This document shows, piece after piece, positions 12,662-46,852 of a stretch of 64,000 bases of DNA. The notes beneath the pieces are model-generated. The model saw nothing but the letters and a program-made list of their open reading frames with translations, did no database searches and was not told the origin of the DNA. Position 1 is the stretch's first letter. Each line of letters opens with the position of its first letter. Source of the stretch: Naegleria gruberi (Eukaryota); the NCBI GenBank assembly GCA_000004985.1, contig GG738848.1; one strand, 5' to 3'. Both the position numbers and the translations under genes were made by a program.

Positions 12662-13201
12662 ATGGGACAAAATTCATCTTCTCACGATCGACACGAAAGT
12701 AAGAGGAAGAAACAAGCTAAAGTTGTCATGATTGGATTGGACTTTGCTGGAAAGTCATCAATAATGTACAAGATGAAGCAAAAGAAGAATCTTCCATCGA
12801 CAGTGCCTACTCTTGGGTTTAATGTTGAAGTGTTAAAGTATAAGAGAGTTGTGTTCACATTGTTTGATATTGGTGGATTATTCCTCAAGACCAAACAGTT
12901 GGCACAACATTATTTCGAGAAGAATCAAGCTGTGATTTTTGTGATTGACTCAACTGATAAGGCCAGAATGAATGATGCCAAACAAACTTTGCATTTGATC
13001 ATGGATGATCAATTGGTTTCTAATTGTAAATTATTGGTATTGGCTAACAAGCAAGATCTACCAGATGCTATGAGTGTAGATGATGTTTCGAGAGAATTAA
13101 ACTTGATGGATATCAAGCAAACTTGGTCGATTCAAGGTTCGAGTGCCAAGACAGGTATTGGATTATTGGAAGGACTTGACTGGTTATCAAAGAATGTGTA
13201 A
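12662..13201 (+). CDS. ARF-like (ARL) small GTPase with an N-myristoylation motif. Switch II reads DIGGL: Leu replaces the catalytic Gln
   Basis: MGQNSS N-terminus, then the P-loop GLDFAGKSS, TVPTLGFNVE (switch I), FDIGG (G3), LANKQDL (G4) and SSAK (G5), in a 179-aa single exon. Confidence 0.85.
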   Translation: MGQNSSSHDRHESKRKKQAKVVMIGLDFAGKSSIMYKMKQKKNLPSTVPTLGFNVEVLKYKRVVFTLFDIGGLFLKTKQLAQHYFEKNQAVIFVIDSTDKARMNDAKQTLHLIMDDQLVSNCKLLVLANKQDLPDAMSVDDVSRELNLMDIKQTWSIQGSSAKTGIGLLEGLDWLSKNV

Positions 13202-13522
13202 TTCTCTTAACAACACTCAGGTTTGATTCCTACCTGACATGCTAATTGATATTTTGAAGAAACACTTGGATGATTGTAGAGCAATATGGCTCGAAATATA
13301 TTGAAATTACTACATGTTTCTCAAGGAGCTTGGAGTTCTCTTGTGAATCACAAGTGTAGTGTATGAGTGATTAATAAAATCTAACAAAACCCAAACACTT
13401 TATTTTGCTCTTTACATTAGTAACTTCCAAAAGAGTAAGTAACTCAATTTTTGTAACAATTTAAAAGTCTTAATTTTGTAAAGACTTTACTGGTTTTATG
13501 TAAATTGGTATGAATAAATTTA

Positions 13523-14569
13523 TTATTGAAAATCAAAGATTGCACCACAATCGATTGCATCTGGATTTTCCACCTCTTGTTGGGTTTGTTGTATTGAGTT
13601 CGAATTTGGAACCCCAAGAGGCACGAAAACACTCTGCATCAACTGGACATATTGCACATAAGAAAGGGAATTCTGTAATTGTTTTGCAATGTGTTGGAAG
13701 ATCTTTGCTTGCTCTTCTTTGCTAATTCTATCTATTATTTCCATAATAATCTCTTGTTCTGAGTTGAATTCAATTGTAATTTCTTCTGACACTGACACTT
13801 TCAAATCTAATTCATTTTGTAAGGGATCTTCTCTGTCAAAAAGAGTTGGTCTTCCTGTATCTTGTATTTCATTTATATCGAAGAAGGATACACCTTTGCT
13901 CTTGGCATAATTAGAATCCGAATAATCCTTGTAACTTCCCTTTTTGAGTCTCACTGTGTTGCTGGCTTTCTCAGTCATTACATGAATGTCAAAAGTGCCA
14001 TCATCATAGGAAATCTTCCAAGCAAAGGTGGATGGTGAATTTTGTGCATTCTCCAAATCCAACATTGATGAGTAGTATTCCTTGCGAGATACTGGTTTAC
14101 AATCTTTCTTGATTACTGATTTGCCAAGAGGTGAGTAAATTAGTTGGTAAAGTGACACCTCATTCACATTTCCAAAAGTAGCAATCGCAGGTTTGTATCT
14201 GATGTTAAATATTAAAGATGGTTCGTCATTACTTTCATCTACAAAAAGACCTAACGAACAATATTGAATAAAGTCTTGTCCATGAGTCTCTGTAATATCT
14301 ATCAATTGTTTGACATCTTGTTTGGATTGACTGCACTCGAATTGAAGTGACTTCATTACAACTGGCCAAAAGATCTTCCTCTTATTCTTTTGAGTAGGGG
14401 TAGTGGAAGAACCTTCACCTTTATCTGTTGATGATCCTGTTTTGACCTTCTTGATCTCTTCCGGTTCTTCAAAGCCTATTTTCTTCTCAATAATAGAGTC
14501 ACAATCCTCTTCCTCCTTTTTAACCTTTTTGTTGCTGCGACTGGTGGTTGTTTGCTTTCTCTTTGGCAT
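13523..14569 (-). CDS. Hypothetical basic/acidic protein (348 aa), probably nuclear
   Basis: Uninterrupted ORF. The N-terminus is Lys-rich (MPKRKQTTTSRSNKKVKKEEE), which looks like an NLS. No conserved domain was recognised. Confidence 0.4.
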   Translation of the reverse strand: MPKRKQTTTSRSNKKVKKEEEDCDSIIEKKIGFEEPEEIKKVKTGSSTDKGEGSSTTPTQKNKRKIFWPVVMKSLQFECSQSKQDVKQLIDITETHGQDFIQYCSLGLFVDESNDEPSLIFNIRYKPAIATFGNVNEVSLYQLIYSPLGKSVIKKDCKPVSRKEYYSSMLDLENAQNSPSTFAWKISYDDGTFDIHVMTEKASNTVRLKKGSYKDYSDSNYAKSKGVSFFDINEIQDTGRPTLFDREDPLQNELDLKVSVSEEITIEFNSEQEIIMEIIDRISKEEQAKIFQHIAKQLQNSLSYVQYVQLMQSVFVPLGVPNSNSIQQTQQEVENPDAIDCGAIFDFQ

Positions 14570-15111
14570 GTTATTGGGTATTTTTTTTGATGTTATTTGC
14601 GTGATGACGGCTAATCATTATGAACCCAACACAAACAAATTTGCTCACAATATTTTTTGTTGGTTCAAATTTGTGGCAAGGTTACTATGGAAGCGCAGCA
14701 ACAATTTCTGTGTTTTGGTGGGCTATTTCTGATTTTGTGTTGTTGGTTGTTTTACAAAAAGGAGATTGTTATGCATGACATAATTTGGTGGAAGTGGACT
14801 ATTTCTTCTAAAAAAGATAGGTGTTATGCCACCTATCCTCCACCAGAACCTTATGGAACGAACTGAGGTATTCAAAGAATTACAAATTAAGGTGGATTCT
14901 TCACATACTGTCACTTTTATAAAAATTCTTATTATTTTTCAAATTTTTTGCATGCCCTCAAAAATGGTTCCAAACCTGAAGTTATTTTCTCTATCAATAT
15001 AATAGATAAGGAAATGATTTTTGAAGGAATGATAGTCTTATATGTCTGGATTATGTGGTTAAAATCATACAGTCAAATACCTGATATTAAGGGTAAAATT
15101 GAATATTGAGT

Positions 15112-15182
15112 TGCGTCGACCGGGAATTGAACCCGGGTCACGGCGATGGCAACGCCGTATTCTACCACTAAACCATCGACGC
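15112..15182 (-). tRNA. tRNA-Gly (anticodon GCC)
   Basis: The reverse complement reads GCGTCGATGGTTTAGTGGTAGAATACGGCGTTGCCATCGCCGTGACCCGGGTTCAATTCCCGGTCGACGCA. The acceptor pairs perfectly, the anticodon loop is TTGCCAT, and the whole is very close to canonical eukaryotic tRNA-Gly-GCC. Confidence 0.8.
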
Positions 15183-15315
15183 CTCTTGTTAAGGTATTAA
15201 GGATGCTATTATTGAACATATTTTTCAAGCGTGATAAGCCTGGAAATTATGTTTTTGTTGTCATAATTTTGATCGATTTTCGAAGCAAACCAATTCTTCC
15301 TTCACTTTAAAAAAA

Positions 15316-16707
15316 ATGAGAATACACGAAATTACATTCACAGAGCAAGGTTTGATGCACGCAGGCCTTGCCGACTGCAAACCATTCGAAAATTCAGCCA
15401 CTCTTTTCAACAATGGAATGGAAACAGCCATTCTAATATTTTCTGTTTTGGACGAAACTGCCTCTGATCAACCAAAATATATTAATCACATTTCCACCGA
15501 ATTTACACAAATTGGATTACTTCCTCCTTCAATGCTTGCTAACAAATTCATTCATGACATTCCGAATATTTCATCACGTCAACCAAGAGTTGAATATTTA
15601 CGAAGTGATGGAAAATTCAACGATGCGAAACATTTGTTTATTGCCTTCTTTTCCAAATCGTATTTTGATCAAACTAAACCGAATGATGATTTTGTAAAGA
15701 GGTTGTTTTCAAGAATTTACTGTGATATTGAACAATATCAAATTAAACATTTGATTATGGAACAATTGGTTTTACCAGATACCGAGGCACATTTTGAATG
15801 GAATAAGGTATTGAGAAATTGTGAAATGTGGAAGAGTTCACTCATGAATTACTTTTCAGAGCTTGATAATTGTTTGATTATGTGTCCAAAAGAATGTGTG
15901 TGGAATCATTATTTGAATGAGTGTAAAACTGTTTCAACTGTTATGAGTTATAATGTATTGGCCCAAAGTTATACATCCACACATTATAATTATTGTAAAC
16001 CTTATATTGGATTTGGTGTGAGAACTCCAAAAATTGTTTCATTGGTGGATTCAATTCAAGCTGATATTCAAATGTATCAGGAAATGGAAAAGGACATGCT
16101 TCAACAGTTGACTAAACCTCACCATCACGTCTTATTCAAACCAAAGGAAGGAAGAAAGGAAGGACTTGCCATCATTATTGACAAACGAGTGTGGGACATC
16201 ACAAAGGAAGGCAGTAACAAGTTGGCTCTAAACCATCCTCAAGATATGATTTTCGTAGCATGTCGACACAAGTTCACTAAGAAAACACTTCTGGTTGTGT
16301 GTACTCACTTACTTGGTGATCCAAAGCAATTAGATATCCAAACAGAACAAGCCAAAGTCCTAGCCAATCGTTCAGATATGACCAAACTAGAATGTGCATG
16401 TGAAAATGTCATTATCGGTGGTGATTTCAATGCCTCACAAGAATCTCAAGCTTATCAAGTTGTTGAGCAAGCTGGTTTCAAGAGTGCAATCAAGGAAATT
16501 CATGGAAAGGAACCTACCATCACATTCAATACTGATGCCATTCACCGATCCATTGATTACTTGTGGTACAATTGCTCTACTATCATGCCTTCAACCTGCA
16601 CAATTTTCAATCAGAAACAAATTGAAATCAAGAAGGAAGAAGCTCTTCCAAATCATCAATATGGCTCGGACCACATTCCAATATTTGCCAAATTTGTGTT
16701 GAATTAA
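15316..16707 (+). CDS. Endonuclease/exonuclease/phosphatase (EEP) family protein (CCR4/nocturnin/PDE12-like C-terminal domain)
   Basis: The C-terminal half carries EEP catalytic motifs: LLVVCTHL, IIGGDFNASQES, DYLWY, GSDHIPIFAKF. The N-terminal half was not recognised. Confidence 0.65.
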   Translation: MRIHEITFTEQGLMHAGLADCKPFENSATLFNNGMETAILIFSVLDETASDQPKYINHISTEFTQIGLLPPSMLANKFIHDIPNISSRQPRVEYLRSDGKFNDAKHLFIAFFSKSYFDQTKPNDDFVKRLFSRIYCDIEQYQIKHLIMEQLVLPDTEAHFEWNKVLRNCEMWKSSLMNYFSELDNCLIMCPKECVWNHYLNECKTVSTVMSYNVLAQSYTSTHYNYCKPYIGFGVRTPKIVSLVDSIQADIQMYQEMEKDMLQQLTKPHHHVLFKPKEGRKEGLAIIIDKRVWDITKEGSNKLALNHPQDMIFVACRHKFTKKTLLVVCTHLLGDPKQLDIQTEQAKVLANRSDMTKLECACENVIIGGDFNASQESQAYQVVEQAGFKSAIKEIHGKEPTITFNTDAIHRSIDYLWYNCSTIMPSTCTIFNQKQIEIKKEEALPNHQYGSDHIPIFAKFVLN

Positions 16708-16887
16708 ATCCTTTGTTTATTATTAAATATATAATTAATTGTATAATAATTAAAGTATTTAATAGTAATTAAGATAAAATTGAAAACATTTACGCCATCA
16801 CCAGCCGTTATATATTTTTTTAAAAAAATAAAAACAAAAAAACATCAACTTCATCAAATAGTAATAATTCAAATATTTTTATTCTTC

Positions 16888-18057
16888 CTATTGATAGGTA
16901 ATCAAATATTCAGGATAGGCTTGCTTATTATCATAGACAATAATTTCCTGTCCTCCCCATCCAGTAACACTATCAAATCCCTGCGGAGCAATCTTAATCG
17001 TCTGCATCATATTCATATTAGCATCATATGAATGACCAACAAGTACTCTCACAATGAACATTCTTCCATTATTACTATTACCAGCATATCCGAGAGAGTA
17101 GGAAGCATTGGGACTAAAGTAAATTCCATTTCCAAATTTCCCACTATTACTCACTCTTGCATCGAAACCTTCCTTGGCAATTAAATCAGCAAATTGTTGT
17201 TGAGTTCCGTGGAAGAGTTGTTTCTCATTGTGGTTGGCTTTCATGTTCTGCTTTTGAAGACTGTACCAATTCCATCGAATGTAATTTTCAATTCGTTCAA
17301 TTTTGAGAATGGTTTTACCTGTGGAGGTTGAGGAAAAGAGCTGAGAACAATGTTGAAACTCTTTGGAGGAGGTGGAAAGTGTTACTATTCGAAAGTGTGG
17401 TTTCATGAGAGGGTTTTTGGAGAGTTTGGGAGGATTTTCCCATTCCTTTGGCCATGAAGAGATGCAATTCACTTGTGTGTTGCTGGTTGAATTGGTTGCC
17501 TTGCTTTCATGTATAAATGAATAGCAATGTGAAATATCTCCAGATAGATACTTTTGACAGGAAGTAGCATCTTGGCATGTATGGAAATAGTGAAGGCAAT
17601 GCTCTTTCTGTTGGAGTTTAGTACACTTTGAATCGTATTTGCATGGATGGACGAATCTGGATCTGTGAACAGAATCAGTAATCATGGAACAGTTTGCTCC
17701 CTTCTTACATGGATGATAATACTTTTCACCATGATCAACATGATCCCTATAGTTTGTTTTGGTACATTTATCCCAATGTTTACAAGGCACCTTGTCTTTT
17801 AATTCATTAACTTTGGTTGAAGTTGATGATTTCGTTGTTTTGCTGCAGCTTGGTGATGAGGAATGGCTGGTTGTTGGTGTTGTACTTGTGGATTGGATTG
17901 TGGATTGTTGTGGTTTGACGTAATTGACAGGAAGAAATTGTGGATTAGCTCCTGTTGTCATGTATCCAACAATTTGTGGCACCGTTCCTTGAGGGATATT
18001 TTGTGGAGGTTGGGATGAAACACTTGGTGTGGGCAATGTTGGATTGTTTTGCTTCAT
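16888..18057 (-). CDS. PARP catalytic-domain protein with three tandem PBZ-type (C2H2, PAR-binding) zinc fingers. Catalytic residues are H-Y-E
   Basis: PBZ-like fingers CKHWDKCTKTNYRDHVDHGEKYYHP, CKKGANCSMITDSVHRSRFVHP and CKYDSKCTKLQQKEHCLHYFH, against the consensus C-K-Y-G-x2-C-x6-9-H-x3-5-[FY]-x-H. The ART fold reads ILKIERIENYIRWNWY...LFHGT...GIYFS...GQEIIVYD. It is single-exon and lies head-to-head with a paralogue 86 bp away. Confidence 0.75.
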   Translation of the reverse strand: MKQNNPTLPTPSVSSQPPQNIPQGTVPQIVGYMTTGANPQFLPVNYVKPQQSTIQSTSTTPTTSHSSSPSCSKTTKSSTSTKVNELKDKVPCKHWDKCTKTNYRDHVDHGEKYYHPCKKGANCSMITDSVHRSRFVHPCKYDSKCTKLQQKEHCLHYFHTCQDATSCQKYLSGDISHCYSFIHESKATNSTSNTQVNCISSWPKEWENPPKLSKNPLMKPHFRIVTLSTSSKEFQHCSQLFSSTSTGKTILKIERIENYIRWNWYSLQKQNMKANHNEKQLFHGTQQQFADLIAKEGFDARVSNSGKFGNGIYFSPNASYSLGYAGNSNNGRMFIVRVLVGHSYDANMNMMQTIKIAPQGFDSVTGWGGQEIIVYDNKQAYPEYLITYQ

Positions 18058-18143
18058 TTTTTTGATAGTGTGAATTGAGAATTTTCCATGTCAGCCTTTT
18101 CTGACAAGCGCAAAGATTAAAAAAAATATTAACAACTGACACG

Positions 18144-19310
18144 ATGCATCAGCCAAACAATCCGAATGGCACAAATAATAATAATTGGCAACAGTTTCCG
18201 CAACAGCAAATCTATTTGCATCAGCAACCACAAGGTCAAGTATTTCCGCACCAACAATTACCAATGTATTGTCAACCGTACCAAATTATTCAAATTCCTA
18301 ATGAAATGATTCAACCATCAACACAACAAGTTTCATCTCAACAAACAATGCTACCAAACGTGATGCTCAGTTCCACTTCAACTTGTCCACAAGATTTTCA
18401 CAATCAAGTACCAGAAAGAGAGGATTTTTGCACTGATTGGAGATTATGTTCTGAAACAAAAGATCAGAAACACAGATGCACCAAAAGACATTTATGTACC
18501 ATCAAGAATTGCTCCAAAACTAGTGATAAGGTTCATGTTGGCAGATTCTTGCATTATTGTAAATATGGTGAAAAGTGTCGTCACATAGATGATGATAATC
18601 ATAATCATAACTTTATTCATCCATGCAAGTATAAGGGAGATTGTAAAAAGCTTGGAGACATTATGCACAGAATTTTCTTTACCCATCCAACAATAGCTGA
18701 CAATGGCTTGTATCCAAGATCTTGGGGAAAGGTGTTGGACGATCATTGTAAATGTGTTAAGCTTTCACATAGCTCTTCAGAATTCAAAGAGGTAGAGAAA
18801 ACATTTATTCAAAGAATTAATCACAGCCATCCAACTGCTCAAGTAATCGACATTGAAAGAGTGGAAAATGCCAAGTTATGGAGAGCTTTCTCAATTAAGA
18901 AATCAGAAACCATTCACAAGAATCAAAATATCAAAGCTGAAAATCAAGTGAAAACACTCTACCATGGAGCTGAAGAAACAGCAGTCGATGCCATCACCAA
19001 AACAGGATTTGATTATAGACGATGCCAAGTTGGACATTATGGACATGGAAATTATTTTGCAGTCAATGCTAGTTATAGTCATGGTTATGCCAAGCCATCA
19101 ACTTCTGATGGTAGTAGAAGGATAATTGTTTGTAAGGTAGTTGTTGGAGAATCTCTCAGAGTAGCACAGAAGGATAATACTCTGAGAAGACCTCAGGATA
19201 AGACAACAGGTAAAATGTATGATTCAGTACAGGGAGGACCAACAGGAACTGAATATGTAGTATTCGATAACGAATCTCCATATCCTGGATATATTGTAAT
19301 TTACAAATAA
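18144..19310 (+). CDS. PARP catalytic-domain protein with tandem PBZ-type zinc fingers (paralogue of 16888..18057). Catalytic residues are H-Y-E
   Basis: PBZ-like fingers include CKYGEKCRHIDDDNHNHNFIHP and CKYKGDCKKLGDIMHRIFFTHP. The catalytic region reads VIDIERVENAKLWRAF...LYHGA...GNYFA...GTEYVVFD. Confidence 0.75.
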   Translation: MHQPNNPNGTNNNNWQQFPQQQIYLHQQPQGQVFPHQQLPMYCQPYQIIQIPNEMIQPSTQQVSSQQTMLPNVMLSSTSTCPQDFHNQVPEREDFCTDWRLCSETKDQKHRCTKRHLCTIKNCSKTSDKVHVGRFLHYCKYGEKCRHIDDDNHNHNFIHPCKYKGDCKKLGDIMHRIFFTHPTIADNGLYPRSWGKVLDDHCKCVKLSHSSSEFKEVEKTFIQRINHSHPTAQVIDIERVENAKLWRAFSIKKSETIHKNQNIKAENQVKTLYHGAEETAVDAITKTGFDYRRCQVGHYGHGNYFAVNASYSHGYAKPSTSDGSRRIIVCKVVVGESLRVAQKDNTLRRPQDKTTGKMYDSVQGGPTGTEYVVFDNESPYPGYIVIYK

Positions 19311-21194: not shown

Positions 21195-21365
21195 ATAATA
21201 CTGTAATTCCTTCATAGAATAAATTCCACAAATGTCTCCAATCTTGAATATCAATTTTTTTATCGTTGCTCAGCAAAGTGAAAAGCTGTATTTAATTTGC
21301 CTCAATTCACTTTCATCACTTGGCCAATAGCAATTAGAATACAAACTTTAAGAAAAGAAATGCAA

Positions 21366-21437
21366 AGCAAATTGGCGCAGCGGAAGCGCGATGGGCTCAT
21401 AACCCATAGGTCCTAGGATCGAAACCTAGATTTGCTA
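21366..21437 (+). tRNA. Initiator tRNA-Met (anticodon CAU)
   Basis: AGCAAATTGGCGCAGCGGAAGCGCGATGGGCTCATAACCCATAGGTCCTAGGATCGAAACCTAGATTTGCTA. It has the A1:U72 pair, the three G:C pairs in the anticodon stem and the GATCGAAAC T-loop (A54/A60) diagnostic of eukaryotic tRNAi-Met. Confidence 0.85.
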
Positions 21438-21532
21438 TTCATTTTACAATTTTGGAATTGAAATGTTCTAAAAATATTACTAAGGTTTGTAAAACATGCA
21501 CCCTTAATGTTTACATCTAAAACTAAAGATAA

Positions 21533-21604
21533 GGGGACCAGTGGGAATCGAACCCACGGCCTCTCGCACCCAAAGCGAGAATCATACCACTAGACCATGG
21601 TCCC
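21533..21604 (-). tRNA. tRNA-Pro (anticodon UGG)
   Basis: The reverse complement reads GGGACCATGGTCTAGTGGTATGATTCTCGCTTTGGGTGCGAGAGGCCGTGGGTTCGATTCCCACTGGTCCCC. The acceptor is perfect, the anticodon loop is TTTGGGT, and it is nearly identical to metazoan tRNA-Pro-UGG. Confidence 0.85.
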
Positions 21605-24855: not shown

Positions 24856-24991
24856 TTTGAACAGTTCAAAACTCCAAACATTTGACAGATCTATCGATCT
24901 TTCAGAAACAGTTTATTCTAACAAAATTATGTTGGAATTGTAAATAACAAAATAAACATTTCCATTTTGTATTCCAAAGGAGCAAAATGTC

Positions 24992-25056
24992 TAGCAAATC
25001 TAGGTTTCGATCCTAGGACCTATGAGCCCATCGCGCTTCCGCTGCGCCAATTTGCT
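24992..25056 (-). pseudogene. Initiator tRNA-Met pseudogene: an inverted duplicate of 21366..21437 with a 7-bp deletion (AACCCAT) that removes the 3' half of the anticodon arm
   Basis: The reverse complement equals the 21366 copy (AGCAAATTGGCGCAGCGGAAGCGCGATGGGCTCAT//AGGTCCTAGGATCGAAACCTAGATTTGCT) except for the deletion between the short repeats CATA/CCATA. About 15-30 bp of each flank is also similar between copies. Confidence 0.7.
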
Positions 25057-25194
25057 TTGCATTTCTTAGACGCTTCTCTTCCTTAAGAAGTATATGTAGA
25101 AATTTACAATGCCAAAAAATTGTTATGAAAGACTATTACATGTTGTTAAAATTAATGCATTAAAATACTGTTTTGAAACCAATGAAATTCACTA

Positions 25195-29900: not shown

Positions 29901-31198
29901 GTCAAACTATTATTAATATTATTATAAATACAAATATTATTATTATGATAACATACATGATAAAGAGTAGTAAGAGAGGAGAATGGAGAAGTGATCTCAT
30001 CATTGGTGAGAAGCAACTCGGTCAAGCTTACTTTCCCAGATTTATCTAAATATTCCGAATATAATGATGATGATGATGAACTTATGAAATATGAAACATA
30101 CCCTTATCTAATTGTTCAAAAATCTTTTTTGCGTTACTATTGCCCATTCTCAATCTATTTAACTACTATAAATTGGTGGTTTTAATAATGTTTTTGATGA
30201 TGTTGTTAATTGCTAAAATTCTATTTTCTTCTTGCTCGTAATGATGACCATGCAATTATTAATATATAATTTAAATGGTACGGGCAAAAGTAATGATTAT
30301 TGCTTGTACTACTACTATTGTTGTTGATGTTCTTGCAAGAACCTAAAAAACTAAATATGATGCAGAGCAGCAGTATTTGCAAGTGTTGTAGTTGAGTGAT
30401 TCTTCTGTTGAATTAAAATACAGACAGACAACAGAGAGAATATAAATTCTGAAGATGATGATATAACAGCAAGCTGCTAATACCGCAATTGTGCCTTCTC
30501 TTCGTTCAAAAAGAAACGAGGTGAGAGTATGGTTAATTTTTTGCAGTCGAAAAATTGTCGCTGCTGAGAACCTTCTTTCATACAAGCTGTTGCCTTGAAG
30601 AGAGAATCTGCCAAATATCGTGAAAAGATGCTTCTTGGCTTGCGACTGTGCACTAGAGTTGGCAAATGTTATTATTAATAATATTGCAGTATCAACCCCT
30701 CAATAATGTATTTGTTGCTTTTGTACACCCTCTTCCGCACCTTCTGATCTAAATGGAAATGGTGTTGTTGCTGATGGATGTATTATTTCAAGTGTTATTA
30801 ATAAGAGGTCTTGTATTGTTTGGTAGTGTTGTGTTTGAACTCTGGATGTAATAGATGATAATAATAACAATGGAAGAGTGAATTATTCGATATCGAAATC
30901 AATTATTAGGTGACGACTGAGTAGGTGATGGGTTACTCAAAGGCTCGAATAGTTGAAATAACCAAGATTAATTATTACAATGAGAGAATGTGAACTGATT
31001 TTAAACTGATCAATTGTATATTTCGTAAATGTGATGCATTGAAATATATTATCAAATATCTTAATAATATCCTCAACAGTTGCTAGTAGAGAAGATATTT
31101 GAAGAGGAATATCTTGGATGTTTTTATTCCAATTAACTTATCAAAATCTCTCAAATTTTCGGTGATCAAAATCCAATTTTTATTACTGATTCTTATCG

Positions 31199-31213
31199 CC
31201 CGCTAAATTGTTT
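31199..31213. repeat. Left terminal inverted repeat of the DNA transposon
   Basis: CCCGCTAAATTGTTT, preceded by ATCG. Confidence 0.55.
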
Positions 31214-31603
31214 CTGTTAACGTCAGCTTGAGTCTTAACGTGGAGCCATTAATAATAAATAATGAAAATTTAATGCATTAATTGACTTCGAATGATTAAC
31301 GAGGCATCATTAAAAATCATTAACAAGAAATTAATGCCAGTCTCATGACTTGTAATTTTTTTGCATTTTTGATGGCGTACTAACATTTTCACATGATGAG
31401 AAGGTTTCCCATCAAGATCAGTATTCAAAATACCAAAACGGTAGAATATGAGCCGATTCAATGAACACAAGCAGATGACACTAAAATTGAAATATAAATG
31501 AAAGAAACTAATTGGGATTTAAGAAAATTAGCACAGCCTAAGGGAGAAAAATCAAAAGCAATAAATCTCAATCTAAATGAACAAACTCTTGTTAATATTT
31601 ATT

Positions 31604-33812
31604 TTAGAGATATTGAAAAGTGTTCTTGTGTACAGTTGTATAGATTTCCTTCTTTGGAAGTGATAGTTGTACACAAGGAAGGTATTTATCAATGTCCTTC
31701 CTTTCTACCACTAATAAAGTATCTGATTTTACACTTTTTAAAGTGATTGTGTTGTAATCTTCAGAGAAAGAGTCAATCTGAAACACTCTGCCCGATTTTA
31801 TGTTGGTAATAAAATCTCTTTTTTTGGAAATAACATAATTTCCAAATATGCACTGTCCTTTGCTAAGATCTTCTCCTAAATCCAAAATATCACAAAGTTG
31901 GCACATATCAAAGTACATGATTGAATACCTTGCAGAGTTTGAGCATACGTAGGTTTTGGAAAGAGTGAAATTAAGCCCTTCACCAATGAATGCTGAATTG
32001 TGAGCTAGTGGGCCATACATTTTACAACTCTGGATTAAATCGGAAACGATGTGAAAGTTTGGTGTTGCCTTTTTCTCTCCAACAATATTTTGGTACTTGT
32101 ACAACAAATCTAATAATTGAATTTCTAAAAAATCAAGAGTTTCCAATTGAAATGAATCTGTAAGGTGATCAACTATTCTTGTTAATTCTGTAATCATCTC
32201 AACATATACAAGAATGGAAGAAATTTCGCCAATATGATTAAATATTTCCAAAAAGTAATGACAAATCATATAAACCTCAATAGCTCTTAACTTATTCATT
32301 GTTTTTCCGTTTGTGATTTTTCTTGGGTGTTTATGAAGGAATGAAGGATATTTTTGTTTGAGGAATATTTTGTCAAATTTTTCCCAATAACTTTCTGGAA
32401 TTAAGGACATGAAATCTTGAAATAATCCTTCATAAAGAACATGCATAGAATCGTAACAACATATAATTGATGGATTAGGATTCCAATCTTGTTTCAAAAT
32501 TGGTGAAATTCCTTTCATTCCTTCATAATCTTTCTTACTCATGTTTTCTTCCCAATATTCTAAACTTCTCAACTCATTTAAATTATATTTTTTTAGAAAT
32601 TTGTCATAATTTAAAGGGTATCTTGTTTGTTTTGTTGTTTCACTAACCTTACTTGTTACCCCTTTTTGTCTACATATATGACAAAAGTACGTTCCACTTT
32701 GTTTAAATAATAATACTTCAGATCTGGCGGGAAGATCACAGACAATTCTTTCTAATCTTATTTTTACAGAATTATGTGAATTGTAATAATTTAAATCATC
32801 CATCAAAATCAGGTTTTTTTGGAGCAAGAATCCAAAGAAAATTATTCGAACGCTTTCTCCTTAAATGTGGTTTCATTTCATTGAAATTGAAAGATCCTTG
32901 ATAAAAAGCATTGGTGCTATTGTTAAATGGGCAAACTGAATCAAAAAATGCAGATATTGTTTTAAGCTTTCCTTCATTAAACAGTTTTTTGTGATGTTGT
33001 TGATAAACCGATCCATGAACTCTATCTGAAACAATTCCATCCTTAATATCTTCCACTTTTTCAAAAAATTGATTATTAAAATCTTTTTCAAAGAAAATTC
33101 TTTCATCCAATTGAAATTTTAGTGGTCTCAAGAAACAATATGAGTGATTCTTCCATTCTATTTCACAATTACATTTTTTTACATTTTTGTTTCTTTCATA
33201 TTCTCCACATTTTGTACAATAATGCACCATAATTGTTTTTCTACTGATATAAAAATAATCATAAAATCCTTTCAACGTGAAATAATATGAATCTTTTTCA
33301 GAAATAGAATTAAAATCTTGAAGTGTTTCTTTAAATAATTCCAAAACAGATTCCAAACTTGATTCAGACAGTTTTGCTTTAACAGCAAACCTTAATAGTT
33401 TCCTCATTATTTTTTCCAACTTGATATCCGTTACAATTCTTTCCACGCTTTGGAATGAATGATTGCTCAATAAATCATTCTCTCCATATTTTGATGATTC
33501 ATGACTATAAAAATTTTTAAGAAACTCATATTCTTCTTGATTCTCTTGATTTTCAAATTCTCTTGATTCATCAGATTCTTCCATATCAACTTCATTGAAA
33601 CAGGAACAGCTCTGTGCTTCATAACCTCCAATTTCTTGACAAAATACCTCCACTCTATCATCATTTCTGACAGGATTATCTTTTAAAACAAAATCAGTTT
33701 CAGAATTTTTCTGAGTACTGTTTGATTGACAGAGTTTCTTACTTGCTCCTCTTAACGCATCAAACTGATACGATCTTTTCATTGTTTTTTGAATGGAGTT
33801 GGAGAAAATCAT
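31604..33812 (-). pseudogene. TNP2-like (Transposase_21; CACTA/KDZ group) transposase gene, split by a 1-nt frameshift into ORFs 32796..33812 and 31604..32827
   Basis: The N-terminal ORF has a Cys cluster (YCTKCGEYERNKNVKKCNCEIEW) and FLWILAPKKPDFD, resembling the TNP2 'LIPGPKQPGNDID' block. The C-terminal ORF has DSMHVLYEG, resembling the TNP2 'DVMHIEKN' block. The two frames overlap by about 30-60 nt at a poly-A run (ccaaaaaaacc / gatggatga). A single-base indel there fuses them into one transposase of about 740 aa. There is no GT-AG intron in the overlap. Confidence 0.5.
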
Positions 33813-33934
33813 GTTTTCAACCTTGATTGAGTTTGATAGGAGGTTTACAATTTTTTGTAAACTTTTTGTAAACTTTTGTATGACATACTAGGCCAATAAA
33901 GATTGTATCCATACAAAAATTTTAAAAAACCAAA

Positions 33935-35242
33935 ATGAAAAGAAAAAGTTCTTCAAAAGTCTCATCTTCTTCAAAATCTCCTCCTTCCAAGAAATCGAAA
34001 GATAGCGAGGAAACTAAGGAATCAACAGATCAATCCTTATATAAAAAGAAAAGGTTATCCAAAAAACAAGTGAATACTATTTTAACCTATAATGAGAAAA
34101 CATTAGAACAAGATAAAGATTCACTTGTTTCCATATTTACCTTCCTCTCAAATCAATTAGAACCCAATATTTCAATTAAATTAGGGGTTAGCTCAATATA
34201 TTTGGTCATTGAAGAATTATATAATTTATCTGGAGAAGGAATTATTGGCATACAAGGAGAGAAAAGCATTGAGAAACTAGTAAAGTCAATTTCTCAATTT
34301 GAAAATTGTGAACAAGCAGTTGTGGTTGCAAGAGACAGAATTGAAAAACAGTTATTCATTGTCAACAACCATTTTCAAGAAAGTATTGGAGAGTTAGAAG
34401 AAATAGAGGAAGGTGATTGTCTCCACATATTTAAGCGAATCAAAAATGGATATGGCTTAATTGGCAAGGGAGTTTTAATAGAAAAAAATGATACCACAGC
34501 CATTCTTAATGAAGTTGAATCTTTGTTAGAATTTGCAAAAATTGATTCCAAGGACAAAGAATTTTCTCTGAGACTTGTTAGAAAGAATAAGTCTAAGAGA
34601 GAAAAGGAAGTTCACCGACCTTCATTTCTATCCAAAAAGAGTACATTAATTACAGAATCTGATAGTGAATCCGAGCTTGAGTTTGAAAGTGAATCTGAAC
34701 ATGAACCTCATCTTGAATCAGAATCTGAGCTTGTTGAATTAGAAAAAGCCAAATCAAAGGAAAAATCTCAACATGAATTGGAAAGAGGTTCAGAATTAAC
34801 CCAACTCCTCCAGATTCCAAATTTCATTGAACATTACCAACAAGTAATTCAAGAAAACTTACAACTGAAGAAAAAGGTTGGCGAATACGAAAAAGCAAAT
34901 AAGAGTTTCAATCATGCTATTAAGCTGATCGTGGAATGCGTTGATAATCATCCAAGAGTGTTTAATTTGAATGAAACCACAATTACAATTGGTCAAGAGG
35001 CGTTCACTATTAGCCATAGGGAACGTTCTGTATTGAATAAGCTAAATGAATCAAAAAAGATTCAGTATATTGCAGATAACATTTTGAAGAAACCGTTGAA
35101 AGATGTTAATGATGACGAAAAGGAATTAATTATTGGGATAGTTATGGATATCAGAGGATTGAATGTCAATACTGATAAAGAGGAAGTGAAAAAGCTTAGA
35201 AATATATTCAGAAATATCAAGTGTAATTCTAAAAAACAATAA
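33935..35242 (+). CDS. Second ORF of the transposon (435 aa; Ser/Lys-rich N-terminus, acidic SE-repeat linker). Its function is unknown, possibly a TnpA-like accessory protein
   Basis: Uninterrupted ORF transcribed divergently from the transposase, 122 bp away. MKRKSSSKVSSSSKSPPSKKSK is NLS-like. There is an ESDSESELEFESESEHE acidic run. Confidence 0.4.
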   Translation: MKRKSSSKVSSSSKSPPSKKSKDSEETKESTDQSLYKKKRLSKKQVNTILTYNEKTLEQDKDSLVSIFTFLSNQLEPNISIKLGVSSIYLVIEELYNLSGEGIIGIQGEKSIEKLVKSISQFENCEQAVVVARDRIEKQLFIVNNHFQESIGELEEIEEGDCLHIFKRIKNGYGLIGKGVLIEKNDTTAILNEVESLLEFAKIDSKDKEFSLRLVRKNKSKREKEVHRPSFLSKKSTLITESDSESELEFESESEHEPHLESESELVELEKAKSKEKSQHELERGSELTQLLQIPNFIEHYQQVIQENLQLKKKVGEYEKANKSFNHAIKLIVECVDNHPRVFNLNETTITIGQEAFTISHRERSVLNKLNESKKIQYIADNILKKPLKDVNDDEKELIIGIVMDIRGLNVNTDKEEVKKLRNIFRNIKCNSKKQ

Positions 35243-37052
35243 CACAGCAAAACAAGCAACAACACTTTCATTGTAAATAACAAATCTATAAATAAAGCAA
35301 AAAACTTGTCAAAAAAAATATCTCTACATCACCAACCGAATTATTGTTATACATAACGTCATTATTCAGTTAGTTTTTAGTATGATTTTACTCTTGATGA
35401 TAGCACCATTATTGTTTATAATTGGAAAGTATCTGAATTATAATATATTATTTATTGAATCAATAGAATTATTGAATATTGGATTTGTAATACATTATTC
35501 AAACTATATAATTTAATCGCTATCTTTGTTATTTTGGACCAAACCAGAAAAATAGAATTTGATTAATTCAGTCCATCCCAAATCTTTGAAATTGTGTCCT
35601 TGTGCTTCGAGTTCTTTAAGATTTGATTTTAAATTAACAAGAAAGGTTCTTTTTGTAAGCATTTATTAATTTTAAATATATTCCCATCTAAATCGTAGAA
35701 TGTACTGTTTACATTCTAATAAGTAGAGGAAACAACTTAGCTTGTTCTTGAAATTGTTCTTCTCAAGTTGTTTTATGTAAGAATTTATTTATTCAAACCA
35801 TTTTAACTTTCATACTCTTCATAATTTAATTTACAATGTAACAATTTCCTATTCTAAGAATTATTAATTGAAATATTAGAACTGCAACAAATAACTTTCA
35901 TATTTGTTAAATTACAAACTGAGATTGAAAATTGGAACTTTCTGAAACAGTTGAATACAAGATTGAGTTGTTGGTTCTTTTCACATTGTTTGGTTGGAAA
36001 TTATATCAACTCAGTGGTTCCATGTATACATTATTCCAACATGAATCTGCTTCTGATTTGGATGCTTTGTTATAGTTCTTAAATTGGGTGTTGGTGTTTA
36101 TCTTGCCAGCATTTTCTACCACTAGATATTGATTCCCAACCAGCAATATTCACCATTGAGTTGAAATTATATGTAAGTTTTCGTCTAATGGAATTGGTTG
36201 ATCCAATTTAATGATTGCTAATTGTTTTAATATAGAACTCGAGATGTATCATCTACCAATGAATTTCCAGCCATCAGTTGTCCAGACCAATTGTTGAAAT
36301 AATTCCACTACTATTTGAAATGAATCTACTTCAATGATTATTATCATTCAAGTCAATAGTGATACCATTGGGAGCATTTAATTTGGAAGTATTAGCCTAA
36401 ACACTCACACCTGCTCCAATAACTAGTTGAAATGATACCACTAGTTGAAACCTTTGTGATAGAATAATTTTGGATGAAGACATCACTTCAACTATTTAAA
36501 GCAACAATTAGGAGGAAATCACCATCATCTAATTATTTAACTGATTGTGAGTTCACTATCCAATTATTCAACTGTATTGGAGTTTATTGAATTTATTTGG
36601 AGTTTAAGGTACGTTTAAAGAATTGTAATTTTTCATATTTATAACTGGTTATCAATATATCAATACTCATAGCTTATCAATTTTAAGGATTTGTGGATTG
36701 GATTAATTGAAAGTGGTGAAATCACTGAATTTTATGAGGATGATGATTATGATAAATTGATTGGACTTGTGGATATGATTGCTTGGATAAAGTGATGTGA
36801 ATAATTAATATTAATTATTAACGAGTAATGATAATAATTTAATATTAATTATTAATATTAATTATTGGCGAATTAGCATTAATAATTAATATTAATTAAT
36901 GACGTTAAAATAACGCATTAAAAGTCGATTTTCTCACGAACAAGGTTTAACGTTTTTATTAACGACTTTTCATTAATTATTAATAAAATTGACTTGATTG
37001 AATGTTAATATTTGTCATTAAAAATTAATAAAAATCATTAGCAATTAATGTA

Positions 37053-37067
37053 AAAACAATTTAGCGG
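37053..37067. repeat. Right terminal inverted repeat of the DNA transposon
   Basis: AAACAATTTAGCGGG (reverse complement of the left TIR), followed by ATCG. Confidence 0.55.
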
Positions 37068-37515
37068 GATCGCTAACACCCAAATTGAGAATAGGTATTG
37101 AAAGAACAGTTGCTAGGAATGACAATGTCGTAAGTCAAAATTGTTAAGGAAGATTTCTATATTGATAAGTTATCAAAATTGTAACATGTTAATTGGATTT
37201 GGATTCAATCAATATTACAATACAAATATATTGAAACGATAAATTTGAATCTTTTATCTCCATAATTGGGATTCAAATTACTCAATCTTTGCAAAATAAA
37301 TAGAGTGCAATAAGGAATTTAGGATCGTCCTGTGGAAAACTTGTAAATTCTTCTGTAGTTTCTTCTAACAGTTCTGGTTTCAATTGAATTAATTTGTCAA
37401 CATGATCGGAGAGCTTGACATTCTCATCAAGCATTATTGACTCGTACAATACTTTCTTAACAAGAGGGTTTTCTCCACGTTGCGCAAATTGGGCAAGTAC
37501 ATTGGAAACAGTTGT

Positions 37516-44416: not shown

Positions 44417-45847
44417 TCACTTCACATTGAGACAACAAGTAGTTTTACAAATACCCCTTATCTCTACCCTAATAGTTGAAATATCACTCTTAACTTCTTT
44501 AATTTCATAATTCATAATGTTACTCTCACTTTTAATATTATGGATATCAGTTTGCATGTTATCAATATCAGTTTTCATATTGCTAATATCATTCTTCATA
44601 CTTTTGATATCAGTCTTCACCTTAGTAATATCAGTCTTCATACTATCCACGTTATTATTAATTTTTTTGATATCATTCTTCATATTGTTGATATCTGTCT
44701 TCATATTGTTGATATCTGTCTTCATATTGTTGATGTCAGTCCTCACAGTGTTGATATCATTCTTCATATTGTGGACATCATTCTTAATATTATTAATATC
44801 GGACTTCATGCTATCAATATTAGTATTAAATTCAGACTTGGTCATGATTTCGTTTCGTATTTTCCTTAGTTCCTCCATAACATCTGCTAGGGACAAATTA
44901 CCACTTTTCACTTGTTCTCCCATTTTTTTCTTGTTAGAAACCTCAGCAACACCATCAGTTAATTTCTCTCCCTCAAGAATGATTTCCATCTCTGATTCAG
45001 CTAGAATGATTTCATCGGAAGCATTGTTATTGTCTTCATTCATTGAATGAGCAATAGAAGTATTCAGCTCTGTTTCTTCCATTACCATAACTTCATTGAT
45101 GTTTTCTTGATTAATAATATCGGGAGTTTCTTCCATTACATTAATTTGATTATTATCATCAGATGTGATAGGAGGATTTCTAATCTCTGGTTCTTCGTTC
45201 AGGTCAAACATAATTACATTTTGGGTATTAAGAGTAAAGCTATTAATATTAGCATTATTCTCCATCTCTGATTCAGTTAGAATAATTTCATCGGAAGCTT
45301 TGATATCCTCTTCTTTCTTGGAATGGGTGTTGGAATTAAGAGTGCTGCTATTCATACTTGATTCAGTTCTAGACTTTGATTTCTTAGAACGAGGCTTCTT
45401 TGTTGATTTGGCTTTCCTTGGAGCAACCATTTCAACAAAATCCTTCATCATTTGCAATAGTTCTTTCTCTCCAGAAAGGTGGGTGATTTCATGGAGAAAG
45501 TTGTACTTTAACTTGCTCTCATCATTCAATGGCTTGAGGAAATTACGAAATTCAGTCTTATCAATGTGATGGAAACTAAAATCATCCAACATGCTACAAA
45601 TAACATTCAAGAATGCCTCCTTGCTTCTCAATAAAACCCAAACTCCATTAGATTTCAATAAGAAGATAGGATGGTTCTTGTTCGCTAAATTATTCATGAA
45701 TTTTTCGAGTGGAAACTCGTTGAAATCATAACCCTTAACCAACACTCTGATTAGAGCAGGTGGAATGAAATCTCCAGTATCTCTATCTTTACTAACAAGA
45801 GTTTTGATAATGAGTTTCTTATCTTTATCAGAAGGCTGTGAATGCAT
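44417..45847 (-). CDS. Hypothetical protein with a C-terminal array of heptad (7-aa) coiled-coil repeats (xDIxNMK)n
   Basis: 476-aa ORF. The C-terminal third is NDINTVRTDINNMKTDINNMKTDINNMKNDIKKINNNVDSMKTDITKVKTDIKSMKNDISNMKTDIDNMQTDIHNIKSE, encoded by 21-nt tandem DNA repeats. Internal duplicated acidic segments are present (DEIILTESEME / DEIILAESEME). Confidence 0.5.
   Translation of the reverse strand: MHSQPSDKDKKLIIKTLVSKDRDTGDFIPPALIRVLVKGYDFNEFPLEKFMNNLANKNHPIFLLKSNGVWVLLRSKEAFLNVICSMLDDFSFHHIDKTEFRNFLKPLNDESKLKYNFLHEITHLSGEKELLQMMKDFVEMVAPRKAKSTKKPRSKKSKSRTESSMNSSTLNSNTHSKKEEDIKASDEIILTESEMENNANINSFTLNTQNVIMFDLNEEPEIRNPPITSDDNNQINVMEETPDIINQENINEVMVMEETELNTSIAHSMNEDNNNASDEIILAESEMEIILEGEKLTDGVAEVSNKKKMGEQVKSGNLSLADVMEELRKIRNEIMTKSEFNTNIDSMKSDINNIKNDVHNMKNDINTVRTDINNMKTDINNMKTDINNMKNDIKKINNNVDSMKTDITKVKTDIKSMKNDISNMKTDIDNMQTDIHNIKSESNIMNYEIKEVKSDISTIRVEIRGICKTTCCLNVK
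44530..44835. repeat. Tandem array of a 21-bp unit (about 14 copies, e.g. ttcatattgttgatatctgtc), coding. It encodes heptad repeats on the minus strand
   Basis: Direct near-identical 21-mers are visible, with three exact consecutive copies at about 44690-44752. They stay in frame with ORF 44417..45847. Confidence 0.7.
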
Positions 45848-46294: not shown

Positions 46295-46852
46295 CTAAAA
46301 CAACAATAATTGTTTCATTTCACTTATGTATTTGGATCCTTTATCACTAATTTCATTGTCAGAAATATTAAGTGATGTTAATTGTTTCATTTCACTTATG
46401 AATTTGGCTCCTTCATCACCAATTTCATTGTTATATATATCAAGTGATATCAATTGTTTCATTTCACTTATGAATTTGGCACCTTCATCACTAATTCGAT
46501 TTACACTAATATTAAGTGATGTTAATTGTTTCATTTCACTTATGTATTTAGCTCCCTCATCACTAATTTGATTGTAATAAATATCAAGTGATGTTAATTG
46601 TTTCATTTCACGTATTAATTTGAGTTGGTCTAAAGAGTCAAACAAATTTCCAGAAACTTTAAGATTAACAATACTATTCATGATTATCAACTTGAGTAAA
46701 TACAGCGAATTTGACACCTGACACATTTTCCAATGACTTGTGACTCTTACAGCTGCAGATTTAACACTTTCAGCAACTGCAAATGATAAATCTCCAGCAC
46801 TATATCTTGCCTCAGTCAATGAAAAGAATGATTTACGAAACAAGCTTGTCAT
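46295..46852 (-). CDS. Leucine-rich repeat protein (RNI-like 24-aa LRRs). It is possibly one exon of a larger gene
   Basis: Repeats EMKQLTSLxIxxNxISDEGAKxIS occur four or more times. They are encoded by 72-bp tandem DNA repeats at about 46316..46612. The adjacent ORF 46833..47015 may be an upstream exon. Confidence 0.55.
   Translation of the reverse strand: MTSLFRKSFFSLTEARYSAGDLSFAVAESVKSAAVRVTSHWKMCQVSNSLYLLKLIIMNSIVNLKVSGNLFDSLDQLKLIREMKQLTSLDIYYNQISDEGAKYISEMKQLTSLNISVNRISDEGAKFISEMKQLISLDIYNNEIGDEGAKFISEMKQLTSLNISDNEISDKGSKYISEMKQLLLF
46316..46612. repeat. Four tandem copies of a 72-bp unit (coding, LRR units)
   Basis: catttcacttatg(t/a)atttgg(a/c)(t/a)cc(t/c)t(t/c)atcac(t/c)aatt...gtgatgttaattgttt recurs with about 90% identity. 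Confidence 0.65.

Follow-up and report, generated by a model that had tools for sequence, protein, structure and literature searches.

A probable two-gene DNA transposon of the CMC/CMCT clade in Naegleria gruberi, with an interrupted transposase gene and multi-copy relatives in Naegleria lovaniensis

Introduction

A stretch of 64,000 nucleotides of the Naegleria gruberi genome (contig GG738848.1, assembly GCA_000004985.1), referred to below as the window, carries two overlapping open reading frames (ORFs) that resemble a split transposase gene, together with a divergently oriented second gene, ORF2, and all of these lie between two copies of an exact 15-bp inverted repeat. The locus raises the questions of whether these genes constitute a mobile element, to which transposon lineage it belongs, and whether this copy could still produce a transposase. 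In a preliminary description, made from the nucleotide sequence, it was presented as a structurally intact TNP2/CACTA-KDZ-like transposon, with a 4-bp target-site duplication and a transposase split only by a change of frame of one nucleotide.

The results described here lead us to conclude that the region 31199–37068 is very probably a single copy of a two-gene class II transposon, from a Naegleria-restricted lineage of the CMC/CMCT clade, that has been inactivated by a deletion. Thus two adjacent N. gruberi "predicted proteins" appear as the halves of a dead transposase within a well-bounded transposon, and the clade of RAG1, Transib and CACTA-type transposases is extended into the Heterolobosea by elements whose termini are atypical and whose accessory gene is private to them.

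Boundaries and Gene Layout of the Element

The exact inverted repeat CCCGCTAAATTGTTT occurs twice in the window, at 31199–31213 on the plus strand and at 37054–37068 on the minus strand, the latter starting one base beyond the position 37053 given earlier. The chance expectation for such a match is about 0.16, even when up to two mismatches are allowed. The element delimited by these terminal inverted repeats (TIRs) is 5,870 bp long and its ends read CCCGCTAAATTG...CAATTTAGCGGG. The tetranucleotide ATCG adjoins both ends externally, as had been claimed, although the right-hand copy extends to 37072 and not to 37071; four identical bases at the two flanks would arise by chance with a probability of 1/256. 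The termini, CCCGCT...AGCGGG, do not conform to 5'-CA..TG-3' and, in agreement with the preliminary description, they are not of the CACTA type.

The arrays of short motifs reported for the subterminal regions were also recovered. TTAACG is present ten times in the window, with seven occurrences inside the element, six of which fall within about 250 bp of an end, and CATTAAT/ATTAATG is likewise clustered near the ends. The gene arrangement is as first described, with two overlapping minus-strand transposase ORFs, in different frames with a net offset of +1 nt, and a divergent second ORF. The features are listed below, in the order of the window; P0001 denotes a 751-amino acid protein of Naegleria lovaniensis that is an intact homologue of the transposase.

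31195–31198: left flank ATCG, candidate 4-bp target-site duplication, read from the sequence as a direct repeat with 37069–37072
31199–31213, plus strand: TIR at the transposase-proximal end, CCCGCTAAATTGTTT, an exact inverted match; the terminal CCCGC(T/A) is also found in the N. lovaniensis families
31214–31345: subterminal region with TTAACG at 31217, 31235 and 31296 and with CATTAAT/ATTAATG, from motif counts
31604–32809, minus strand: C-terminal part of the transposase (ORF 31604–32827, 407 amino acids), from tblastn with P0001
32802–32820, minus strand: lesion site, consisting of the GATTTTGAT junction (32802–32810) and an A7 run (32814–32820), from tblastn and homologue alignment
32796–33812, minus strand: N-terminal part of the transposase, 338 amino acids, identical to XP_002682167.1 (NAEGRDRAFT_46017)
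33813–33934: spacer of 122 bp between the two divergent start codons, with 2.4 copies of the 11-bp tandem repeat TTTTTGTAAAC
33935–35242, plus strand: ORF2, 435 amino acids, intact, from the ORF scan; its start lies 122 bp from the transposase start codon
35243–36786: internal region of about 1.5 kb with no ORF of at least 50 amino acids, from the ORF and Rfam scans
36787–37053: subterminal region beyond ORF2, with an AT-rich 47-bp tandem repeat (36800–36898), TTAACG at 36818, 36947 and 36959, and CGTTAA at 36903
37054–37068, minus strand: TIR at the end beyond ORF2, an exact inverted match
37069–37072: right flank ATCG, read from the sequence

The motifs in 31214–31345 may constitute binding sites for the transposase or the ORF2 protein, and the 122-bp spacer, for which the equivalent in the N. 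lovaniensis elements is 171 bp, may act as a bidirectional promoter. No Rfam family was detected in the element and no further copy or fragment of it occurs in the 64-kb window. The reconstructed empty-site allele would read TTCTTATCGCTAACAC and no long ORF extends across it, which implies that the insertion was intergenic or intronic and not exonic.

Sister Elements in Naegleria lovaniensis

Alignment of N. lovaniensis loci revealed two related families of two-gene elements. Family 1 is 5.89 kb in length and encodes P0001 and its near-identical members (seven sequences within one 90%-identity cluster) at many loci; 13 copies carry both ends and one (L008) has the right end only, and the copies, all located at different loci, are 97.7–100% identical to the reference copy. 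Family 1 has also given rise to two internally deleted derivatives, found at three and two sites, respectively, and their occurrence at several sites implies continued mobilisation, presumably in trans. Family 2 elements, of 7.1 kb and encoding a 786-amino acid transposase, are represented by two copies at different loci which are 100% identical over their shared 7,060 bp. A further related element, L004, was found in assembly GCA_050043615.1.

The window element, both families and L004 share one layout, in which the divergent ORF2 is followed by a short spacer and the transposase gene, and in families 1 and 2 and L004 the transposase lies within about 110–190 bp of one end. The termini are CCCGCTACTCGC...GAGAAGCGGG for family 1 and CCCGCACCCC...AAGAAGCGGG for family 2. 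The terminal CCCGC(T/A) is therefore maintained across families that cannot be aligned in DNA outside the transposase gene, and it probably also occurs in L004, for which a candidate left end, CCCGCACAG..., was found. Moreover, the subterminal regions of all the families are filled with TTAACG, CGTTAA or TTGACG. The shared termini, together with the multi-copy sister families, confirm the boundaries of the window element and demonstrate that the sister families move; the support that other copies lend to these boundaries comes from sister families in N. lovaniensis and not from copies of the same family.

A scan of metagenomes with the 15-mer TIR yielded 120 loci, none of which showed any further DNA or protein similarity, and they were rejected as relatives and considered to be chance matches.

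These results bear on the reading that the inverted match is coincidental and that the enclosed genes are resident, domesticated host genes which do not move. It draws on the single copy seen in N. gruberi and on the annotation of both transposase halves as ordinary predicted proteins. However, it has to accommodate a repeat with the low chance expectation given above, the occurrence of the same terminal hexamer and subterminal motifs at the equivalent positions of multi-copy relatives in another species, and a transposase gene that is disrupted (see below), and we regard it as scarcely credible.

The N. lovaniensis elements may have been detected earlier by automatic annotation. RepeatModeler assigned 38 hits and 69,762 bp to the class "CMC-EnSpm" in that genome (Liechti et al. 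2018, PMC6125883, Table 3). Twelve copies of a 5.9-kb element would occupy about the same length, and this comparison of amounts suggests that the repeats are probably the sister elements described here. The same paper provides an automatic class label only. Termini, duplications, the genes carried and any target preference are not reported in it, and N. gruberi is not covered. In the literature searched, no description was found of the termini, genes or targets of the N. lovaniensis elements.

Two additional arrangements were observed at these loci. The right end of the family 2 element in L005 is interrupted by a nested 422-bp insertion (L005:12509–12930), resembling a miniature inverted-repeat transposable element, which has the inverted ends TATGGCGGCGC...GCGCCGCCATA and carries CGTCAA/TTGACG; L006 has CGTTAAAAT at that position and the true end of the family is ...AAGAAGCGGG. 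In L003, the contig end is palindromic (12410–18837), with genes for an nSTAND-type ATPase and a short-chain dehydrogenase repeated in inverted order and followed by another element end at 18800–18837. The arrangement is a genuine inverted duplication flanked by two elements, or else it arose as an artefact of assembly.

The Transposase and Its Classification

Both halves of the transposase were already annotated in N. gruberi NEG-M, as unrelated "predicted proteins". The N-terminal part corresponds to XP_002682167.1 (P0005), as listed above, and the distal 312 amino acids of the C-terminal half to XP_002682166.1 (P0004, NAEGRDRAFT_62791), and the two are encoded on one scaffold of 712,659 bp. 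When the conceptually fused protein was used in a word-seeded search, P0001 was the better of only two matches, with 41–42% identity and colinearity over 91% of the query. At the DNA level (tblastn), the N-terminal part aligns with P0001 residues 107–344 (42% identity) and the C-terminal part with residues 355–751 (44% identity), and neither half contains a stop codon.

A zinc-ribbon-like cysteine cluster lies in the N-terminal part, with the pattern CxxC...CxC where homologues have CxxC...CxxC. The same part contains AFFDSVCPF, with the first catalytic Asp, and FLWILAPKKP, which is strand beta3. In the C-terminal part are the D..MH block, the C(2)C and H(3)D motifs and two catalytic residues, the second Asp (CDLPARS) and the Glu (FIGEGLN). 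The blocks that had initially been taken as TNP2-like were correctly identified, since FLWILAPKKP forms beta3 of the RNase H core, CDLPARS includes the second catalytic Asp and DSMHVLYEG is the invariant D..MH block.

A profile built from the Naegleria proteins produced 968 matches at E<=1e-3, 258 of them at E<=1e-10, against 1.84 billion representative sequences. Among 50 aligned family members, 46 match Transposase_21 (TNP2), counted at E 0.01 and many of them above the gathering score, while 44 match DUF1258 and 13 match DUF4218, the latter being a C-terminal domain typical of TNP2 proteins. DUF1258, which is co-matched by distant homologues, is a Caenorhabditis family. Closer relatives gave weak Transposase_21 matches (P0003, E 0.006; P0152, "weak"). 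Seven columns of the 50-sequence alignment are invariant, D301, D380, C398, C401, D475, H478 and E630 in P0001 numbering, and N604, H606 and H610 are nearly so. The window protein retains all of these residues except H610, which is an Asp in the Naegleria sequences (H-x3-D). The conserved columns correspond to the D-D-C(2)C-H(3-4)H-E signature that is common to EnSpm, Mirage, Chapaev, Transib, Plavaka and RAG1 (Kojima 2025, PMC12730594).

The fold leads to the same group. An AlphaFold2 model of the intact homologue P0001 (predicted local distance difference test, pLDDT, 80; predicted template modelling score, pTM, 0.79) shows the RNase H order of beta1 (293–303, ending near D301), beta2, beta3 (335–340), alpha1 (346–366) and beta4 (371–379), followed by D380. 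In a Foldseek search of the PDB, the top 12 matches were all RAG1, BbRAGL of amphioxus or HzTransib of Helicoverpa, with E values of 4e-8 to 5e-4 and probabilities of 0.99–1.00, and the next match had an E value of 0.08. A profile search against PDB sequences gave zinc-ribbon noise only. The reach of the family into Transposase_21 and the restriction of the fold matches to RAG1 and Transib place the transposase in the CMC/CMCT clade, as defined by Kojima (2025, PMC12730594) and reportedly by Yuan and Wessler in 2011, and not in KDZ (Kyakuja-Dileera-Zisupton).

The label TNP2/CACTA-KDZ-like is thus supported in its TNP2/CMC component and not in KDZ; the two halves themselves gave no Pfam match, and the family reaches Transposase_21 but, among the 50 members sampled, in no case KDZ. 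An affiliation with KDZ rather than CMC is very unlikely. A general resemblance exists, both groups having large DDE transposases with cysteine clusters, but none of the 50 aligned members matches a KDZ Pfam model, as against the 46 that match Transposase_21 and the 13 that match DUF4218, and the fold is that of RAG1 and Transib. The duplications differ as well, being 2 or 4 bp here as opposed to 7–8 bp in KDZ. Zisupton elements generate duplications of 8 bp. For Kyakuja, 7-bp duplications are given for the two families characterised by Kojima (2025, PMC12730594).

In the N. gruberi proteome only one copy of the window transposase family is present. Other members of this transposase lineage in the species fall into at least two additional, distinct families. 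One is P0003 (XP_002668619.1), a protein of 690 amino acids that appears intact and is encoded on a contig of 12,976 bp; the other, P0008/P0169/P0170, consists of C-terminal fragments on three scaffolds.

The Lesion in the Transposase Gene

Alignment with P0001 by tblastn localises the frame change precisely. One segment stops at 32811 (residue 344) and the alignment resumes in the following frame at 32809 (residue 355), such that P0001 residues 345–354 are skipped and there is a net shift of +1 with a loss of ten residues. The lesion is therefore not confined to a single nucleotide, as had been stated, because the ten residues are maintained by five homologues from at least four families, including P0003 and P0007, with no variation in length. 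The frame change does adjoin an A7 run, seen as T7 on the plus strand at 32814–32820. In the homologues the region reads P-x-x-[D/E/I]-x-I-x-[L/I]-x-[L/M]-[K/Q]-[I/V]-[L/M/I]-M-[D/N]-D-L, and P0007 is the protein most similar locally. In the P0001 model, the missing residues form the N-terminal half of helix alpha1, corresponding to its first 2.5 turns or so, with pLDDT above 90.

The window upstream frame reads A-P-K-K-P-D-F-D-G-stop and the downstream frame (L-L-Q-K-N)-L-I-L-M-D-D-L. At their junction lies the 9-bp sequence GATTTTGAT, which encodes D-F-D when read in the upstream frame, in agreement with the P-x-x-D of homologues (P-N-H-D and similar); read in the downstream frame it gives I-L-M, as in their K-I-L-M-D-D-L. 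The most likely cause of the lesion, judged from these sequences, is a single deletion of 29 bp between two copies of GATTTTGAT. In such an ancestor, one copy would have begun on the first base of a codon and its counterpart on a third base, nine codons further on, giving a spacing of 29 nt, or 30 minus 1, and the deletion would account both for the ten lost codons and for the +1 shift.

An alternative is that one base was inserted into an A6 run, or misread during sequencing, in a lineage that is naturally ten residues shorter at a loop here, and that reversion, slippage during transcription or a +1 frameshift would make the gene functional. Removal of one A yields an uninterrupted ORF of 735 amino acids that is colinear with P0001 throughout, the A7 run lies directly at the frame change, and the catalytic residues are all intact. 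Against this, the five homologues retain the ten residues at constant length, and a protein restored in this way would be short of roughly 2.5 turns of a core helix and of the Pro that is conserved in K-P. The match of the upstream frame to the homologues for four codons past the A run (P-D-F-D versus P-N-H-D) would have to be coincidental, and two events are needed where the deletion needs one. Furthermore, the change required is +1; after a -1 slip on the A run, the reading frame meets stop codons. The N. gruberi assembly is Sanger-based, a type in which errors in the length of an A7 run are uncommon, and this also counts against a one-base change, which we consider improbable overall.

The deletion remains our preferred explanation, and with it the window copy is to be regarded as inactivated; programmed or transcriptional slippage is unlikely. 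The earlier suggestion of recent inactivation or slippage is accordingly retained in its first part, with ten core residues lost, and not in its second. The copy cannot produce a full transposase and it lacks the uninterrupted transposase ORF of an autonomous element. All else is intact, including the identical TIRs, ORF2, every catalytic residue and the absence of stops from either half, and for this reason both the insertion and the inactivation are judged to be evolutionarily young.

The Accessory Gene ORF2

The ORF2 protein is basic at its N-terminus, carries an acidic Ser/Glu stretch and a long helix, the latter as predicted, and has a small folded domain at the C-terminal end. Its N-terminal third shows weak but colinear similarity to the ORF2 protein of family 1 (BLASTP, E 5e-6), and its C-terminal third to that of family 2 (E 2e-5), both values being obtained within a set of four sequences. 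The N. lovaniensis and L004 ORF2 proteins match one another at 1e-18 to 1e-33. No Pfam domain was detected in ORF2 and no homologue was found among 5.8 billion proteins, a profile search returning only the N. lovaniensis ORF2 proteins. The AlphaFold2 model has an overall pLDDT of 42, with values of 72–87 for residues from about 360 to 430, and this poor model yielded no match in a fold search. We consider ORF2 to be a fast-evolving accessory protein that, by analogy with TnpA of En/Spm, may bind to the subterminal repeats. A third conserved gene was not found in the 1.5–2 kb or so beyond ORF2, and there is no coding conservation in this region between families 1 and 2 of N. lovaniensis.

Target-Site Duplications

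For the N. lovaniensis elements, perfect 2-bp duplications flank 12 of the 15 insertions, comprising 10 of 13 in family 1 and both of those in family 2; the duplicated dinucleotides read AA, TG, GA, TT, TC, AT, AA and TA, followed by TT and AT. The three exceptions also fit a 2-bp duplication if one or two extra bases are placed between the transposase-proximal terminus and the flank:

L007: extra C, then GA
L010: extra A, then TC
L011: extra TA, then TT

These bases may be donor-flank nucleotides that were carried along by imprecise cleavage at the transposase-proximal end.

In the orientation of the transposase, the junctions of the window element read ...GCGAT|element|CGATAAG. Here a 4-bp duplication, CGAT (ATCG on the strand shown), is favoured as the probable one because it requires no coincidence, and this reading is based on a single insertion. 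A duplication of 4 bp in place of the 3 bp classical for CACTA elements, as first proposed, therefore holds for the window copy but is not established for the lineage, in which the relatives show 2 bp. It is less probable, but by no means negligible, that the true duplication in the window is also 2 bp and that the other two bases of ATCG are donor-flank nucleotides from imprecise end cleavage. In favour of this are the predominance of exact 2-bp duplications among the N. lovaniensis insertions, the explanation of all three exceptions by one or two extra nucleotides at the transposase-proximal end, and the presence in the window of CG and then AT at that same end. On the other hand, the two extra bases would have to match those upstream of the left duplication by chance (1/16), and the lineages of the clade differ in duplication length, with values of 2–5 bp (PMC12730594), a range which includes both the 4 bp of the window copy and the 2 bp of N. 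lovaniensis.

Insertion-Site Preference in Naegleria lovaniensis

In 12 of 14 N. lovaniensis insertions (L001–L003, L005–L012 and L133–L135), the flank next to the transposase-proximal end contains a run of at least five A residues that starts at +10 to +16, where the background is 2.3% (binomial P about 1e-18). Seven of the 14 lie in front of an annotated host gene of the same orientation, 21–34 bp upstream of its start codon. An A-run is found just before the ATG in about half of N. lovaniensis genes (27/56). Together, these observations suggest that insertion is specific in position and orientation and occurs just upstream of gene starts. The window copy lacks the A-run pattern, with an A5 run at +18, and the nearest ATG-initiated ORF of at least 40 amino acids starts about 1.3 kb away.

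A tentative proposal, to which we would give rather less than even weight, is that the Naegleria elements represent a distinct and formally undescribed CMC/RAG1-like group, whose transposase would recognise CCCGC termini in place of CA..TG. In N. lovaniensis this transposase would direct insertion, with strong specificity for position and orientation, to sites 21–34 bp or so ahead of host start codons, its gene running in the direction of the host gene; sister families would differ in stagger (2 versus 4 bp), and some copies may carry one or two donor-flank bases at one end. Whether "undescribed lineage", the term used initially, is appropriate is uncertain; a class label has probably already been attached to the N. 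lovaniensis sister elements. If correct, the proposal would make these elements a natural example of a RAG1-like transposase that directs integration to start sites. The N. lovaniensis copies, with their preference for the 25 bp or so before start codons, are young, numerous and apparently intact, they would be suited to the study of how RAG1-like transposases select ends and targets, and they constitute candidate raw material for genetic tools in Naegleria.

Proposed Mechanism and Weighing of the Evidence

From the biology of RAG1/Transib and CACTA elements, the following mode of transposition can be envisaged. A transposase of about 735–750 amino acids would recognise the CCCGC...GCGGG termini, and either this protein or that of ORF2 would bind to the subterminal TTAACG/TTGACG repeats. 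The RNase H-fold D-D-E site, together with its C(2)C/H(3)D zinc module, would then cut at the ends, and the excised element would be inserted at a short staggered cut, producing the 2-bp duplications of the relatives and the apparent 4-bp duplication of the window copy.

Some observations weigh against the assignment of the window element to a deletion-inactivated member of the CMC/CMCT clade. Only one copy of the exact window family has been seen. Neither window half, at E<=1, nor P0001 has a direct match in Pfam, and the homology of the window protein to Transposase_21 is thus transitive, if consistent, and lacks a direct link. The second zinc motif is H(3)D instead of H(3-4)H. The 29-bp deletion is a parsimony argument for which the ancestral sequence is deduced and not read. 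Finally, the termini are CCCGC and not the 5'-CA..TG usual in the clade, where the latter holds "in most cases" and not for all lineages (PMC12730594). We nevertheless maintain the assignment as very probable.

Other Features of the Window

Outside the element, a tRNA-Met(CAT) gene (21366–21437) has an inverted copy 3.6 kb away that is 87.5% identical (21355–21458 and 24971–25067). The copy is missing 7 nt in the anticodon region, was not called as a tRNA and is likely to be a tRNA pseudogene. A tRNA-Pro(TGG) gene is located on the minus strand at 21533–21604. Tandem DNA repeats, with periods of about 72–84 bp and one pair about 275 bp apart, occur at 44490–44832, 44976–45325 and 46307–46622. 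Most of them lie inside long minus-strand ORFs (44417–45847 and 46295–46852), which suggests that these encode repeat-containing proteins.

Comparison with Known Systems

The maize En/Spm element carries CACTA termini, generates 3-bp duplications and uses alternative splicing of a single transcription unit to make both TnpA and TnpD. It resembles the window element in having two element proteins, one of them of the TNP2 type, and arrays of subterminal repeats at both ends. It differs in its termini, which are CCCGC in the window, and in its duplications, given the 4-bp flanking repeat here and the 2 bp of the relatives. The two-gene layout, which had been likened to that of En/Spm, is also of another kind since, as read from the genes, the two run away from each other, each from a start codon of its own with 122 bp between them, and ORF2 has no detectable homologue outside the Naegleria elements.

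Within CMC, Mirage elements produce 2-bp duplications, as do the N. lovaniensis relatives, and Chapaev elements produce 4-bp duplications, as does the window copy; the likeness is one of duplication length, and the termini of the Naegleria elements differ from both.

Relative to the CMC/CMCT clade as a whole, the window element is set apart by CCCGC...GCGGG where the clade has 5'-CA(CTA)...TG-3', by H(3)D, by the lack of a direct Pfam match and by a divergent accessory gene that is private to Naegleria elements. It shares with the clade the D-D-E residues, C(2)C and, in the interval from the second Asp to the Glu, another zinc motif that contains His, as well as the RAG1/Transib fold, duplications within the range of 2–5 bp and short subterminal repeats.

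Transib elements generate 5-bp duplications and end in CACAGTG-like heptamers. Sequence identity to RAG1/Transib is about 10% and the window element has no RAG2-like partner, but RAG1/Transib structures (PDB 6CIK, 6B40 and 6PQX, among others) are the only significant structural matches and extend over about 440–690 alignment columns. Moreover, the distance from H-x3-(H/D) to the Glu, which is 20 residues in the Naegleria protein, is like that of RAG1 in the residue numbering of the latter.

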